Assembly: GCA_039802085.1 (NCBI GenBank)
Contig: JBDRVU010000002.1
Coordinates: 1 to 41,150 of the forward strand
DNA from: a candidate division WOR-3 bacterium
GTDB taxonomy: Bacteria > Hydrothermota > Tepidihabitantia > Tepidihabitantales > JBDRVQ01
Length of the DNA: 41,150 bases
Direction: 5' to 3'
Within the stretch, counting starts at the first letter, position 1. Each line of letters begins with the position of its first letter. Both the position numbers and the translations under genes were made by a program. Shown here piece by piece: positions 3,712 through 40,720 of this stretch. The notes below the pieces were generated by a model that was not told the origin of the DNA, ran no database searches, and saw only the letters and a program-made list of their open reading frames with translations.

Positions 3712-4296
3712 ATGAAACTGACCAGTCAGTCAAAAAGAGACTTAATCTTAAAGGCAGCGGAAGGAATCTTCTTAAAGAAAGGTTTCTTCCCCACCCGGGT
3801 TGAAGATATCGCCCGGGCCGCCAAAGTAGCGAAAGGAACGGTTTATCTCTACTTCCCGGATAAGGAAAGTATTTATCTATCTCTTTTTATTCAAAAGATT
3901 GACGAAGGCAACTCTTTTTTGAAAGAGATGATAAAAAAGGATATTTCTCCCAAGGAAAAGTTAAGCCAGATTTTTGACGATTGGTTGGCACTTTTTTCCC
4001 AAAGCGAAGGGCTACCTTCTTTCTTTTCGCTTGAGAACATTAATTTTACTGACAAAATTGTGAAAAGAACCAGAAAGGAGATAATCCCCCGGATAAGTAA
4101 GATGGTTAGTTTAGTGGCGGGGATTATCCAAGAAGGGATAAAAATTGGAGAGTTCCGCAAGATTAACCCAGAAATATCCGCCCTCACTTTTCTCCATTTA
4201 ATTCATGTCGGTTTGATCTATCAGGCATTTACCAAACGATTGAAGGGTAAAGAAAATTTTATTAAGGAGATATTCTTTAAGGGAGTAGAAAGATGA
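3712..4296 (+). CDS. TetR/AcrR family transcriptional regulator
   Basis: 194 aa. Canonical N-terminal TetR HTH: ILKAAEGIFLKKGFFPTRVEDIARAAKVAKGTVYLYFPDKESIY. Its stop overlaps the next start (ATGA at 4293). Confidence 0.9.
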   Translation: MKLTSQSKRDLILKAAEGIFLKKGFFPTRVEDIARAAKVAKGTVYLYFPDKESIYLSLFIQKIDEGNSFLKEMIKKDISPKEKLSQIFDDWLALFSQSEGLPSFFSLENINFTDKIVKRTRKEIIPRISKMVSLVAGIIQEGIKIGEFRKINPEISALTFLHLIHVGLIYQAFTKRLKGKENFIKEIFFKGVER

Positions 4297-33948: not shown

Positions 33949-34020
33949 TTAATAAAAGGATATTTCTTTTCAAGTTTTTTATCTTCAATAACTTATCTAC
34001 TTTTGGGGTAGATTTAAGGT

Positions 34021-34090
34021 GAACCCTACCACCGCCTCCCACACCACCCCCTACCCCACCTCTTCTCTCAGTTCCCTCCCCTACTTTCCG
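34021..34090. other. strongly G-depleted (C/T/A) tract on the + strand; G-run-rich on the - strand
   Basis: The + strand reads gaaCCCtaccaccgcctCCCacaccaCCCCCtaCCCCacctcttctctcagttCCCtCCCCtac. The complement carries 6 runs of G3 or longer, consistent with a relaxed G-quadruplex pattern. This contrasts sharply with the AT-rich surroundings. Confidence 0.5.
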
Positions 34091-34205
34091 GACCGATTTT
34101 TCCCTTAATTAAAGGTCTAATCTTCTCCCTAATTTCTCTTCTCAAAAAAGGTCTCCTCTCCTCCCTAATTTACTCTCCAAGAAACGGTCTAATAAAAAAC
34201 CTCTT
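34090..34205 (+). repeat. degenerate tandem repeat, unit ~36-37 nt (AGGTCTnnnCTyCTCCCTAATTTnCTCTyC...)
   Basis: R1 34113-34148 aggtctaatcttctccctaatttctcttctcaaaaa. R2 34149-34185 aggtctcctctcctccctaatttactctccaagaaac. A partial unit lies on each side (ggaccgatttttcccttaattaa; ggtctaataaaaaacc). The frame is open from 34018 to 34272 but has no ATG/GTG start. Confidence 0.6.
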
Positions 34206-34221
34206 TTCCTGCCCCATCCCT

Positions 34222-34243
34222 TCTCTATTTTTGGGAATAGAGA
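34222..34243. other. perfect 8-bp hairpin TCTCTATT-tttggg-AATAGAGA
   Basis: Seen directly at the 3' edge of the tandem-repeat segment. Function unknown. Confidence 0.3.
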
Positions 34244-34314
34244 GACGGGTAGTGAGGTATTTGGTTTTTATTTAAGGCAAATCCGAATTATTTTGTCTAA
34301 TAATGCAAAAAAAA

Positions 34315-34342
34315 TTGGCATCTATGCCAAAAATTTTGGCAT
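34315..34342. promoter_or_regulatory. candidate enhancer (UAS): palindrome TTGGCAT-ct-ATGCCAA plus a third TTGGCAT half-site
   Basis: Palindrome at 34315-34330 with 7-bp arms, and a TTGGCAT half-site at 34336-34342. It is centred about 115 bp upstream of the predicted sigma-54 transcription start, the usual range for bEBP binding sites. Confidence 0.5.
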
Positions 34343-34411
34343 TTTGGATTAAAAGCAAATAGTCAATTTTATAAGTATTTGATTTTTAATGATTTATTTT
34401 AATTATGGATT

Positions 34412-34427
34412 TGGCACGATTTTTGCT
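34412..34427 (+). promoter_or_regulatory. sigma-54 (RpoN) promoter TGGCACGATTTTTGCT
   Basis: Matches the TGGCACG-N4-TTGC(A/T) consensus at every specified position. GG is at 34413-14 and GC at 34425-26, giving correct -24/-12 spacing. It lies in an AT-rich intergenic region. Confidence 0.75.
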
Positions 34428-34437
34428 ACCTAAATAG

Positions 34438-34519
34438 GTAGGGTCTCTCAAGTGCTAAGGGGGTGCCTAAACTAATTCTGGCACTTCTGATAAAAAAAGG
34501 GGCTTTGGCCCCTTTTTTT
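34438..34519 (+). ncRNA. candidate sigma-54-dependent small RNA (~80 nt)
   Basis: It runs from the predicted TSS (about 12 nt after the -12 GC) to the terminator: GGUAGGGUCUCUCAAGUGCUAAGGGGGUGCCUAAACUAAUUCUGGCACUUCUGAUAAAAAAAGGGGCUUUGGCCCCUUUUUUU. There is no ORF. Two stems compete for the same 3' arm: AAGUGC/GCACUU and GUGCC/GGCAC. All downstream genes are on the other strand. I do not recognise it as any Rfam family. Confidence 0.5.
34492..34519. terminator. bidirectional Rho-independent terminator
   Basis: AAAAAAA GGGGC tttg GCCCC TTTTTTT. On the minus strand it sits 4 nt after the stop of the 34524..34958 gene, the end of the kinase-to-NTF2-like operon. On the plus strand it ends the sRNA candidate. 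Confidence 0.85.
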
Positions 34520-34523
34520 ATTT

Positions 34524-34958
34524 TTATTCAGAAGCCGAAATTATATACCAGTGATTATCTTCCTTTATCAGATAGATAACGAGAGGCGAGGCATAAAGTA
34601 ATTCCTCGCCATAATTTCTTTCTTTTCCCAATACCCGAACATAAAGACTGCATCGGGCAAATGGTTTTTCTACATTTAATTTCCGAAATGGTAAAAATAC
34701 CCTTATCTCGTCGTATAATTGAAAATTCTGCCGGAAAAAAGATATTAGACCGTAATAGTCATGGCCCCAGGCGTCAAGATAATCAAAAGATAAGAGCTCC
34801 GTAATTGTCTTCAATTCTCTTTTTTCTATTGCCCCTCTCCCTTTTTCCACTAAACGAAAGATAATCTCTCGGTCCGAAGGGAAAAGAATCTTTATTGCCC
34901 TTAAAGAGACGATAATAATTATCACCATTAAAAGAGAAATAGAGAAAAATCGCTTCAT
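34524..34958 (-). CDS. membrane-anchored hypothetical protein (NTF2-like fold suspected)
   Basis: 144 aa with an N-terminal TM/signal anchor (SISLLMVIIIIVSL). The remainder has the size and pattern of SnoaL/DUF4440-like proteins (...NHWYIISA), which is weak evidence. Confidence 0.5.
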   Translation of the reverse strand: MKRFFSISLLMVIIIIVSLRAIKILFPSDREIIFRLVEKGRGAIEKRELKTITELLSFDYLDAWGHDYYGLISFFRQNFQLYDEIRVFLPFRKLNVEKPFARCSLYVRVLGKERNYGEELLYASPLVIYLIKEDNHWYIISASE

Positions 34959-39025: not shown

Positions 39026-39458
39026 CCGGAGGGGTTGGTTCATCCGCGGAAGGCGCTGCCTCGTTTTTTGTCTCCTTCCTGGTCACTTCGGAAATCTTTG
39101 CCAATAGAGTTGGCATATCCGCTGGCTTTGGAATATAAGCATCGGCACCCATCTCAAGACCTCTTTCTCGGTCCTGAGACCCAGTCCGGGCAGTAATCAT
39201 AATTATCGGTATCTCCTTAGTTATGTCATTCATCTTTAAGAGCCGGCAAACAGTATAGCCATCCAGTTTGGGGAGCATTAAATCAAGAAGAATCACATCC
39301 GGTTTTTGGGTCCGGGCTAAGCTAACCGCCATAAGGCCATCACCCGCGGTTAAGACTTCATAACCGGCCTCTTCCAGGCGAAACTTCATTAATTCCCTTA
39401 GATTTACCTCATCCTCAACCAGAAGAATTCTTTTCTTAGTCGCCGGTTCAGTATTCAT
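39015..39458 (-). CDS. stand-alone response-regulator receiver protein with an acidic/Pro-rich tail
   Basis: 147 aa. ILLVEDE, phospho-acceptor context VILLDLMLPKLDG, MITA, YIPKP. There is no output domain. The last ~25 aa are KETKNEAAPSADEPTPPDEK. Confidence 0.9.
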   Translation of the reverse strand: MNTEPATKKRILLVEDEVNLRELMKFRLEEAGYEVLTAGDGLMAVSLARTQKPDVILLDLMLPKLDGYTVCRLLKMNDITKEIPIIMITARTGSQDRERGLEMGADAYIPKPADMPTLLAKISEVTRKETKNEAAPSADEPTPPDEK

Positions 39459-40602
39459 TCTCTTTTCCCAGCTCGCCTTTGGCGAAGTCTCGCTTCGCGG
39501 AAGACGGATTCACTAACGGTATAACAAAATTGAAAGTAGCACCACTACCCTTTTTACTCTCAACCCATATCTCCCCTTTATGAAGATGGATAAACTCTTT
39601 AACAATCGTCAAGCCGATACCAATTCCTTTAGTTCCTTCCCGGGCGCGACCGCGCTCAAACATCTCAAAAATTTTATCCTTATCTTCTTCGACAATCCCT
39701 GGTCCGAAGTCAATCACCGAAACCATAAGGTATTTCTCAGTAGGTGGTAACCTGCGCCCTAAAATATTTTTATCTCCCTGATCAAGAAGCTGCACTCTAA
39801 TAATGACCTTTTCTCCTTCTGGGGAAAATTTTATCGCATTCTCTAAAAGATTGATTAAGACCGAGGTGAGCTGGTCAGGGTCGGCTAAAAAGGAAGGTAG
39901 AAAATTTGGAATTTCTTCTACAACATAAATCCTTTTCTTCTGCAGGAGAAAAGAGAGAGAGGATATTGCCTTCTTAACAATATCCTTGATTTTAACCTCG
40001 TCGGGTTTGGGAAAAACCTTCCCCCGGACAATCCTCGTCACATCAATCAAATTCCGGGTGATGCGCTCTAACCTTATCACCTCTTCCTCCGCCAGAGATA
40101 GAAAACGTAAAAGATAATCCTCCAACTTCCCACTCCCTTTTTCTCTTATAATACTAATCGTCTCCTTTATCGTGGCTAATGGCGAAAGGATCTCGTGAGA
40201 AACTTTACCTAAAATATCAATTTGACTCTTTTCAATTTCCTTCCAAAAGGTGATGTCTCGGAAATAAAAAATTGATTTCCCCTGGTTCTCCTTACAAGAA
40301 CAGACCCAGAGTTCACATTCCAGTTCTTTCCCTGCCTTAGTGAAGAGTTTTACTTCTAAATGGAAGGGGAAAGTGTGGTGTGCAGACTTATCAAATGCCG
40401 GACTTAAAAGAGATAGATGCTTCTCCGAAACCAAACGATTGATAGGCATACCCTCTAATTCCTTTGCCGAATACCCAGTCATTTCTTCCAGCCGGCGATT
40501 ATGGAATATGATTTTGCCTCCGGCGAGAATCGCTATACCATCAACCGCACCTTCTAGGATATCTCCTAAAAAATCCGGGCTAGGCTTTTTCATTTTCATC
40601 AT
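39448..40602 (-). CDS. cytoplasmic PAS-domain sensor histidine kinase
   Basis: 384 aa with no TM segment. PAS (IIFHNRRLEEMTGYSAKEL), H-box VSHEILSPLATI, N-box LINLLENAIKFSP, G1 DFGPGI, G2 GIGIGLTIVK. The 3' end overlaps the receiver start by 11 nt. The C-terminal tail is encoded by the 26-nt repeat. Confidence 0.9.
   Translation of the reverse strand: MMKMKKPSPDFLGDILEGAVDGIAILAGGKIIFHNRRLEEMTGYSAKELEGMPINRLVSEKHLSLLSPAFDKSAHHTFPFHLEVKLFTKAGKELECELWVCSCKENQGKSIFYFRDITFWKEIEKSQIDILGKVSHEILSPLATIKETISIIREKGSGKLEDYLLRFLSLAEEEVIRLERITRNLIDVTRIVRGKVFPKPDEVKIKDIVKKAISSLSFLLQKKRIYVVEEIPNFLPSFLADPDQLTSVLINLLENAIKFSPEGEKVIIRVQLLDQGDKNILGRRLPPTEKYLMVSVIDFGPGIVEEDKDKIFEMFERGRAREGTKGIGIGLTIVKEFIHLHKGEIWVESKKGSGATFNFVIPLVNPSSAKRDFAKGELGKENEY
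39473..39498 (-). repeat. 26-nt dual-hairpin repeat, copy 1 (14 nt upstream of the receiver ATG, inside the kinase 3' end)
   Basis: + strand tcgcctttggcgaagtctcgcttcgc, identical to 40602-40627. In mRNA sense it reads GCGAAGCGAGACUUCGCCAAAGGCGA. Hairpin A is GCGAAG/CUUCGC and hairpin B is UCGCC/GGCGA. They share 4 nt, so they are mutually exclusive. Confidence 0.8.
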
Positions 40603-40720
40603 CGCCTTTGGCGAAGTCTCGCTTCGCAGATATCCCTAATGCTTCCTCGCCTCGCCAGACTGAGTCTGCTGGTTTTTTCTCCATCAAAAAATCCAACCGG
40701 AACATATAAAACCTCTTCAT
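40580..40720 (-). CDS. candidate 46-aa upstream ORF overlapping the kinase start
   Basis: MKRFYMFRLDFLMEKKPADSVWRGEEALGISAKRDFAKGDDENEKA*. The ATG lies 10 nt after a -10 box. It ends 23 nt inside the kinase ORF in another frame. It shares the SAKRDFAKG tail with the kinase through the repeat. The track's longer 69-aa version would start upstream of the promoter. Confidence 0.4.
   Translation of the reverse strand: MKRFYMFRLDFLMEKKPADSVWRGEEALGISAKRDFAKGDDENEKA
40602..40627 (-). repeat. 26-nt dual-hairpin repeat, copy 2 (abuts the kinase ATG, inside the uORF 3' end)
   Basis: Identical 26-mer. Its last mRNA nucleotide is the A of the kinase start codon (GGCGAUGAUG). Confidence 0.8.

Follow-up and report, generated by a model that had tools for sequence, protein, structure and literature searches.

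Small RNAs (sRNAs) transcribed from sigma-54-dependent promoters are known from a few well-studied Proteobacteria and from Campylobacter, and these RNAs are the outputs of major sensory circuits, such as quorum sensing and those that monitor nitrogen status, flagellar assembly and the sugar supply of the cell envelope. Here we describe a locus of this type in a 41,150-nt stretch of DNA from a candidate division WOR-3 bacterium (assembly GCA_039802085.1, contig JBDRVU010000002.1, positions 1 to 41,150 of the forward strand), and this whole stretch is called the window below. The locus combines two enhancer-type dyads, an AT-rich box, a sigma-54-type promoter and a short predicted RNA that ends at an intrinsic terminator. 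Judged from its sequence, the locus is very probably a genuine sRNA gene transcribed from a sigma-54 promoter. The best explanation overall, with a probability of about 0.7, is an independent gene for a trans-acting regulatory RNA of about 80 nt, controlled by that promoter and enhancer. We found nothing on sigma-54 or sRNAs in WOR-3 in the literature, including the WOR-3 genome papers and their supplements, and we know of no sigma-54-dependent sRNA reported anywhere in the Fibrobacteres-Chlorobi-Bacteroidetes (FCB) group. The first WOR-3 isolate was reported only in 2025 (PMC12285271).

The genes for the Qrr1-5 RNAs of Vibrio are, like the WOR-3 locus, short (~100 nt) and orphan, and they share with it a sigma-54 promoter, activator-type dyads about 100 bp upstream, an intrinsic terminator and a highly conserved body. 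But there is no sequence or covariance-model similarity between them, and the WOR-3 RNA has one hairpin plus a terminator instead of the four stem-loops of Qrr, is present as one copy per locus instead of a multigene family, and comes from another phylum. The dyads also differ, being TGCCAA-N5-TTGGCA here and TTGCA-N3-TGCAA for LuxO, the activator of Qrr. LuxO is an NtrC-type response regulator (PMC4878744, PMC11407668).

GlmY and GlmZ (Enterobacteriaceae; GlrR/QseF) share with our locus the sigma-54 promoter, the activator-type sites and an intervening IHF-type site, and an overlapping sigma-70 -10 box is possible as well. GlmY works by sequestering a protein, and the WOR-3 sRNA might do the same. 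However, the WOR-3 RNA is about 80 nt long compared with about 150-200 nt, has no Rfam match and no glmS context, and its activator site is different from that of GlrR (TGTC-N10-GACA). Another comparison is offered by Campylobacter jejuni, whose RpoN-dependent sRNA we take to be CJnc230. This RNA and NrsZ, NfiS and CrcZ of Pseudomonas are RpoN-dependent, are controlled by NtrC-family or flagellar activators and act post-transcriptionally (PMC4253122, PMC6755748, PMC11187230). Their sequences are unrelated to the one described here, and they belong to Pseudomonadota or Campylobacterota with known activators and inputs. Pxr of Myxococcus xanthus is an orphan sRNA with a predicted sigma-54 promoter that occurs in one clade only; its sequence is also unrelated, and it differs in its three stem-loops, its phylum and its genetically defined developmental role.

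Since the fold, the activator site and the phylum are all different and no covariance model matched, the WOR-3 sRNA belongs in none of the Qrr, GlmY, NrsZ, NfiS or Campylobacter families. Neither the window nor any of five related loci contained an Rfam match that reached the gathering score, in line with the initial annotation, whose author had not recognised the sequence; the best sub-threshold matches (sraA with 28.6 bits against 56 needed, and others) aligned to the terminator only. The predicted WOR-3 sRNA is a new family of sigma-54-dependent sRNAs, and the type itself is already known.

Conserved modules of the locus

The features of the locus are listed below; identities here and in the text are mean pairwise values from an alignment of seven lineages, which covers about 240 bp from the enhancer to the terminator.

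34303-34321, no strand: distal dyad ATGCaAA-AAAAA-TTGGCAT, one mismatch to ATGCCAA-N5-TTGGCAT, centre at about -126
34324-34342, no strand: proximal dyad ATGCCAA-AAATT-TTGGCAT, perfect TGCCAA-N5-TTGGCA, centre at about -105
34365-34390, minus strand: conserved AT-rich box AATTTTATAAGTATTTGATTTTTAAT, centre at about -60
34411-34427, plus strand: sigma-54-type promoter TTGGCACGATTTTTGCT, with -24 GG and -12 GC
34428-34437, plus strand: variable -11 to -1 region, identity 0.31, contains TAAATA in the window
34438-34519, plus strand: predicted sRNA of about 82 nt, start placed at the -12 GC plus 12 nt, end at the T7 run
34438-34458, plus strand: conserved 5' segment GUAGGGUCUCUCAAGUGCUAA of the sRNA, identity 0.87, predicted to be weakly structured
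34459-34488, plus strand: stem-loop 1, a 9-bp hairpin with arm GGGGGUGCC (34459-34467), loop UAAACUAAUUCU (34468-34479) and arm GGCACUUCU (34480-34488)
34492-34519, both strands: bidirectional intrinsic terminator A7-GGGGC-uuug-GCCCC-U7, ends the sRNA (plus) and the mRNA of the 144-aa gene (minus)
34524-34958, minus strand: convergent 144-aa gene, stop codon at 34524-34526, tail-to-tail with the sRNA in 7/7 lineages

Only one site in the 41-kb window matches TGGCACG-N4-TTGCW, namely the perfect sigma-54 consensus TGGCACGATTTTTGCT at 34412-34427 on the plus strand, where the initial annotation had placed it. The accompanying judgement that a chance match is very unlikely was borne out, as none of 100 dinucleotide shuffles of the window contained such a site and the analytic expectation is 0.0065 per window.

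Relatives of the locus were reached through homologues of the 144-aa protein and of a neighbouring metallophosphoesterase, and one more was reached through a metagenome pattern scan. This gave seven species-level copies, which are the window, L139, L078, L077, L097 (with the near-identical L132), L128 and L126. The six relatives are metagenome-assembled genomes (MAGs) or contigs of WOR-3, the phylum that NCBI taxonomy now names Caldifarciminota; the NCBI label "candidate division WOR-3 bacterium" stands on neighbouring proteins and on the L126 record. The MAGs that hold copies are GCA_965648925.1, GCA_965649285.1, GCA_900174595.1, the L126 MAG and the Ga0078972 bin. The initial annotation had proposed to look for conservation in relatives and for covariation, and both were found: promoter, enhancer and RNA are kept as separate modules across the seven lineages, the terminator covaries and stem-loop 1 shows one compensatory change.

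The spacing of TTGGCA[CT]-N5-TTGC is invariant in 7/7 lineages, and the identity of the -24/-12 element is 0.83. The RNA body has a mean identity of 0.87-0.90 (0.79-0.96 between lineages). At 4-fold degenerate sites of the neighbouring metallophosphoesterase gene the identity is 0.30-0.60 overall and 30-47% in the deeper pairs, which means that these sites are essentially saturated, and in the same deeper pairs the RNA body is still 79-91% identical. The invariant GG/GC spacing together with the saturated neutral sites is strong indirect evidence that the sigma-54 holoenzyme would read this promoter. The distance from the -12 C to AGGG is 11-17 nt across lineages and the sequence of this stretch is also variable, and in every lineage conservation begins within 1-5 nt of the predicted +1, which is placed 12 nt from the -12 C. 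Such an onset of conservation, despite the variable 11-17 nt before it, is what a sigma-54 start site would lead one to expect. The same variable stretch is palindromic in several species (CTACCTA-aa-TAGGTAG at 34426-34441 of the window, TTCTATT-at-AATAGAA at 1160-1176 of L097), and TATAAT lies within it in L078, L097 and L139 (the stretch is at about 4712-4722 in L139); these features may reflect a sigma-70 -10 box that overlaps the promoter, or may simply be chance occurrences in AT-rich sequence.

Downstream of the promoter we saw no gene on the plus strand and the next gene is on the minus strand, and the terminator is present, all as described before. From these features the initial annotation had concluded that only a short RNA could be produced. 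The terminator alone does not establish this, because it is bidirectional and also ends the minus-strand operon, but the comparative data do support the short output. The fold is identical in type for all copies, with folding z-scores of -3.2 to -4.9. In stem-loop 1, 98.6% of cells are paired and a sliding partner lowers pairing to 37-55%; the arms have identities of 0.89-0.90, and L128 carries one compensatory change from G-C to A-U and one change from G-U to G-C. The loop (identity 0.83) has a variable 5' half and a conserved 3' half, AAUUCU, and its length steps are not multiples of three. The terminator follows directly after a short A-rich stretch of the RNA, and 5/9 of its pairs are changed on both sides across lineages with 94% of cells paired, so that its structure is kept at an identity of 0.56. 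Two details of the fold proposed initially had to be given up: the G-rich run GGGGGUGCC, drawn as a loop, is the 5' arm of the conserved hairpin, and the competing stem AAGUGC/GCACUU loses three pairs in L128 and one in L139 and was not considered conserved.

The 5' segment of about 21 nt reads (G/A)UAGGGUCUCUCA(A)GUGCUAA across lineages. It has no stable conserved pairing in the consensus fold, and its unpaired probabilities are intermediate and species-dependent; the segment from UAGGGUCUCUCA to GCUAAG is a candidate seed or protein-contact region. A small protein-coding gene was rejected. The sole open reading frame (ORF; GUG at 34463, 38 aa) begins inside a run that resembles a Shine-Dalgarno (SD) sequence and extends beyond the terminator, and its frame is not kept across lineages, whose loops differ by indels of 1, 2 and 4 nt, so the RNA is non-coding. 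SD mimicry by UAAGGGGGUG was rejected as well, as this run is the 5' arm of stem-loop 1 and its variants (AAGAGGG in L128, one G fewer in L126) keep the stem and not the anti-SD pairing.

A covariance model of the RNA, R1, found exactly one copy per locus at 79-98 bits and had no match in more distant loci. Among species-representative genomes no relative of the 144-aa protein was found, and the 18 matches of an RNA-body pattern scan of representative genomes were all chance. Synteny based on pyrB yielded relatives with at most 66% amino-acid identity, none with the sRNA element, and distant metallophosphoesterase homologues (29-39% identity) had another gene context with neither the sRNA nor a sigma-54 motif. 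The sRNA family thus seems confined to one WOR-3 clade.

The sRNA is absent from L129 (also from L130 and L131), in which the 144-aa protein is 50% identical. The same intergenic region of L129 (3520-3730) holds, on the other strand, a sigma-54-type promoter TTTGGCATAAATTTTGCTT and the same TAAGTCATTGATTT box, and the sequence downstream of this promoter is unrelated, has little structure (z = 0.2) and contains a 59-aa ORF that lacks an SD sequence.

Enhancer dyads and AT-rich box

The initial annotation had reported a palindrome, TTGGCAT-ct-ATGCCAA (34315-34330), and a third TTGGCAT half-site (34336-34342) as an enhancer layout. Both are present, and the interpretation as an upstream activator-type site stands, but the enhancer is described better by two 19-bp dyads than by the palindrome, whose central ct is the linker between them. 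The enhancer consists of two tandem dyads ATGCCAA-N5-TTGGCAT with a 21-bp period, a variable 2-nt linker and four half-sites, and Tandem Repeats Finder gave a 21-bp unit repeated 1.9 times at 34303-34342. In the window the outermost half-site is degenerate (ATGCaAA, 34303-34309), which explains why only three half-sites, two of them as a palindrome, were recognised initially. The distal dyad is also degenerate in L078 and L139 and is complete in L077, L097 and L128, and the proximal dyad is kept in 6/7 lineages. Enhancer identity is 0.73, compared with 0.33 in the outer flank, and TGCCAA-N5-TTGGCA with up to one mismatch occurs 3 times in the window against 0.09 expected. In two strain variants, which are a contig of assembly GCA_965648925.1 and a Logan contig, each 99.8% identical to the window, the linker is changed from ct to tg with the half-sites untouched, and the linker also varies across species. 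The last half-site is 68-72 nt from TGGCAC in the six lineages in which this was counted directly. At about -105 and -126, the dyads lie within the 80-150 bp expected for sigma-54 enhancers and are candidate binding sites for an upstream activator.

In L128 all four half-sites are changed symmetrically to TGCCGA/TCGGCA, as would be expected from co-evolution of a dimeric DNA-binding domain and its site. The promoter TTGGCA is unchanged in L128, and in both L126 and L128 the -24/-12 element shows no change that parallels those of the enhancer half-sites. Since the half-sites of L128 change symmetrically and the promoter TTGGCA stays, the -24 element is not merely another half-site.

Between the enhancer and the promoter lies the AT-rich box, which reads TTTATAAGT(A/C)(T/A)TTGATTTT across lineages and has an identity of 0.75, compared with 0.41 and 0.53 in the flanking spacers. 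On the minus strand, 34372-34384 reads AATCAAATACTTA and matches the IHF consensus WATCAANNNNTTR. This consensus is found at a constant offset (-38 to -40 from TGGCA) in 5/7 lineages, and 0.02 matches are expected per 140 nt. The box is therefore a candidate bend site, through IHF, HU or intrinsic bending.

A scan for the dyad combined with a sigma-54 pattern gave 28 matches, including several plausible sigma-54 promoters (in Mailhella, in Smithella, before a Noviherbaspirillum pilin gene, and others), and the downstream genes were unrelated and without an sRNA homologue. Since TGCCAA-N5-TTGGCA dyads also stand before sigma-54 promoters in Desulfovibrionaceae, Syntrophales, Burkholderiales and others, where the genes are unrelated, the motif does not reveal the activator family. 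L106, L108, L112, L118 and L121, from Mailhella and related Desulfovibrionaceae, encode a small protein of about 95 aa that starts with MAFTEQDL(R/K)NQ(Q/K)QEIARL; its gene follows a conserved sigma-54 promoter that has this dyad and, upstream, another half-site, TGGCAA. Two such dyads stand in tandem before a secreted protein in L113 (Smithella), and one stands before a pilin gene in L111. The window itself has a third perfect dyad, TGCCAATAGAGTTGGCA, at 39099-39115 within a response-regulator gene, about 60 nt before the start of an M6 peptidase gene; it has no sigma-54 motif near it and is not conserved in L077.

Proposed mechanism and alternative explanations

The phased dyads, the bend site near -60, the -24/-12 element and the terminated RNA together suggest that an NtrC-family activator turns the sRNA on. 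In the proposed mechanism, RNA polymerase with sigma-54 would sit at the promoter in a closed complex, and an AAA+ enhancer-binding activator of the NtrC family, presumably encoded elsewhere in the genome, would bind the dyads. Bending of the DNA at the AT-rich box would bring this activator to the promoter, where it would open the closed complex in response to a signal. The RNA would then act in trans, most likely by base pairing with mRNA through the weakly structured 5' segment (UAGGGUCUCUCA...GCUAAG), and stem-loop 1 and the terminator may provide stability or a chaperone handle. That the RNA works by base pairing rather than by protein binding is a tentative choice, for which we would give slightly less than even odds.

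Several observations weigh against this proposal. The dyads of L126 have decayed to a 21-bp direct repeat (TTGCCGA-N5-TCAACAG / TTGTCGT-N5-TCAACAT), in which the 21-bp period is kept and most of the dyad symmetry is lost. TATAAT-like hexamers just 5' of the RNA body in four lineages make a sigma-70 contribution possible. No further sigma-54-like promoter was found in the approximately 80 kb of this lineage examined, and the window and the readable related loci contain neither rpoN or an RpoN box nor a gene for a GAFTGA-type activator; for the window, the initial annotation had likewise listed no rpoN and no enhancer-binding protein. The best duplex with an mRNA in the window has -25.1 kcal/mol compared with a shuffled-seed mean of -24.0, and target searches by duplexfold and k-mer complementarity in the 41-kb window and related loci, which cover a small part of the genome, gave nothing above the shuffled-seed background. 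An 8-nt complementarity in the metallophosphoesterase coding region was at chance level and was discarded. Finally, nearly the whole RNA is conserved and not a short seed, which fits a protein-binding RNA at least equally well.

The last point leads to the possibility that the same sigma-54-driven sRNA acts by binding or titrating a protein instead of pairing with mRNA, for which GlmY-RapZ and CrcZ-Hfq/Crc are precedents. Almost all positions of the body of about 55 nt are conserved (0.87-0.90), including the AAUUCU half of the loop and the GCUAAG linker, which exceeds the typical seed-only pattern, and no local target was found. But repeated protein-binding motifs (GGA, ARN) are absent from the RNA, which has a single hairpin, and we saw no candidate partner, the 144-aa neighbour having no recognisable RNA-binding domain; on balance we think protein titration rather unlikely. 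The RNA could also act in cis on the convergent operon, by its perfectly complementary 3' overlap of about 30 nt at the shared terminator, by read-through antisense or by polymerase collision. The tail-to-tail order and the shared bidirectional terminator are kept in 7/7 lineages while the far-side gene changes, which speaks for this idea, but read-through should be low at so strong a terminator, which has 5-6 G-C pairs, a stem extended by A/U pairs and a U6-7 run, and a purely antisense role would leave the strong selection on the 55-nt body upstream of the overlap unexplained. Action in cis is a distinctly unlikely explanation in our opinion.

A different alternative concerns the promoter: the RNA might be made wholly or partly from a sigma-70-type promoter with a TATAAT-like box at -11 to -5, TGGCAC-N5-TTGC being an overlapping second promoter or another binding site. 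Escherichia coli glmY, as Reichenbach et al. reportedly described in 2009, has overlapping sigma-70 and sigma-54 promoters. At our locus TATAAT (L078, L097, L139) or TAAATA (window) lies 5-8 nt before the conserved body, and TTGGCA and TATAAT separated by 16 nt in L097 would make a good promoter. However, the -10-like box is missing in L126, L077 and L128, and where it is present it stands 13-16 nt from TTGGCA, in most cases too close. The -11 to -1 region that would contain this box is the least conserved part of the locus (0.31), whereas the -24/-12 element keeps its spacing without exception and varies hardly at all in sequence, even in TTGC, which would be a mere spacer for sigma-70, and the dyads and the bend box would have no role at a sigma-70 promoter. 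We consider such an origin of the RNA very unlikely. It is scarcely credible that there is no RNA gene at all, with the terminator serving the convergent operon, the dyads being a terminator or structural repeat and the sigma-54 match being chance or a relic. The terminator is indeed bidirectional, and the L097 dyads follow a co-directional gene in a terminator-like manner, but the promoter, its spacing and the 55-nt body, 79-96% identical in seven lineages, are kept despite saturated synonymous sites, and in 4/6 readable lineages (window, L077, L126, L128) the gene upstream of the dyads is divergent and needs no terminator. The conservation pattern thus appears to have effectively refuted this idea, and a recently spread mobile block is disfavoured by the fixed syntenic position.

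Genomic neighbourhood and biological meaning

The trans-acting, sigma-54-controlled sRNA gene that we prefer has one constant neighbour, which is the 144-aa gene. The initial annotation had linked the RNA to pyrB, and this was not upheld, because the far-side gene differs between relatives: the window and L139 have DUF3098-pyrB there, L077 has DUF1648/SdpI, L097 an LVIVD-repeat protein, L126 a UDP-sugar dehydrogenase and L128 an unknown 780-aa protein. In the window the sRNA locus is upstream of, and divergent from, the DUF3098-pyrB-pyrC (dihydroorotase) operon, and a good sigma-70-type promoter (TTGACA-17-TATTAT, 33860-33832, minus strand) drives these genes away from the sRNA element. The 144-aa protein has an N-terminal hydrophobic helix followed by helices and a C-terminal beta-sheet, belongs to no Pfam family and has 8 cluster representatives among 5.8 billion proteins; its AlphaFold model had a pLDDT (predicted local distance difference test) of 51 and was not used. 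Its gene is the last in an operon that also encodes a histidine kinase with a PAS domain, a response regulator with a receiver only, an M6 peptidase that has a type IX secretion system (T9SS) tail, a short-chain dehydrogenase/reductase (SDR) and the metallophosphoesterase. As a speculation, the adjacent PAS kinase and receiver-only regulator could feed the sigma-54 circuit. The rest of the window is ordinary chromosome with cysS, an RND efflux system, an H+-pyrophosphatase, adk, ftsY, era, accA and several T9SS-tailed proteins, and no tRNA or Rfam family was found within the window.

Repeats were also seen in the window. A 36-bp tandem repeat (AAAGGTCTAATCTCCTCCCTAATTTCTCTTCTCAAA, 2.3 copies) at 34111-34193 lies in a C/T-rich stretch (34020-34230) between the sRNA enhancer and the DUF3098-pyrB promoter, and in L128 the sRNA copy is likewise preceded by a comparable array (3800-4010), which is made up of short TTAGRC/TTAAAC repeats. 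A 44-nt direct repeat (82% identity) at 39458-39501 and 40587-40630 contains the hairpin GCGAAG-cgagac-TTCGC; on the minus strand its copies stand immediately 5' of the response-regulator start and the histidine-kinase start, and it was not present in L077.

At its widest, the finding would be the first riboregulator under sigma-54 and enhancer control from beyond Pseudomonadota, Myxococcota and Campylobacterota, one that integrates signals in the manner of Qrr or GlmY in WOR-3, a deep-branching and almost uncultured phylum, with an enhancer specificity that co-evolves with its activator (TGCCAA to TGCCGA) and possibly a sigma-54 "promoter cassette" downstream of the 144-aa gene, whose RNA was replaced and inverted in L129; this whole picture is an unlikely one, and we offer it as a conjecture. 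For WOR-3, in which regulation has hardly been studied, the locus provides a short, concrete and testable regulatory element. In complete genomes its 5' segment could be used for target prediction, and the enhancer motif could be used to find the regulon of the activator. With so strongly conserved an example in WOR-3, circuits of this design may be older or wider in distribution than the model organisms show.

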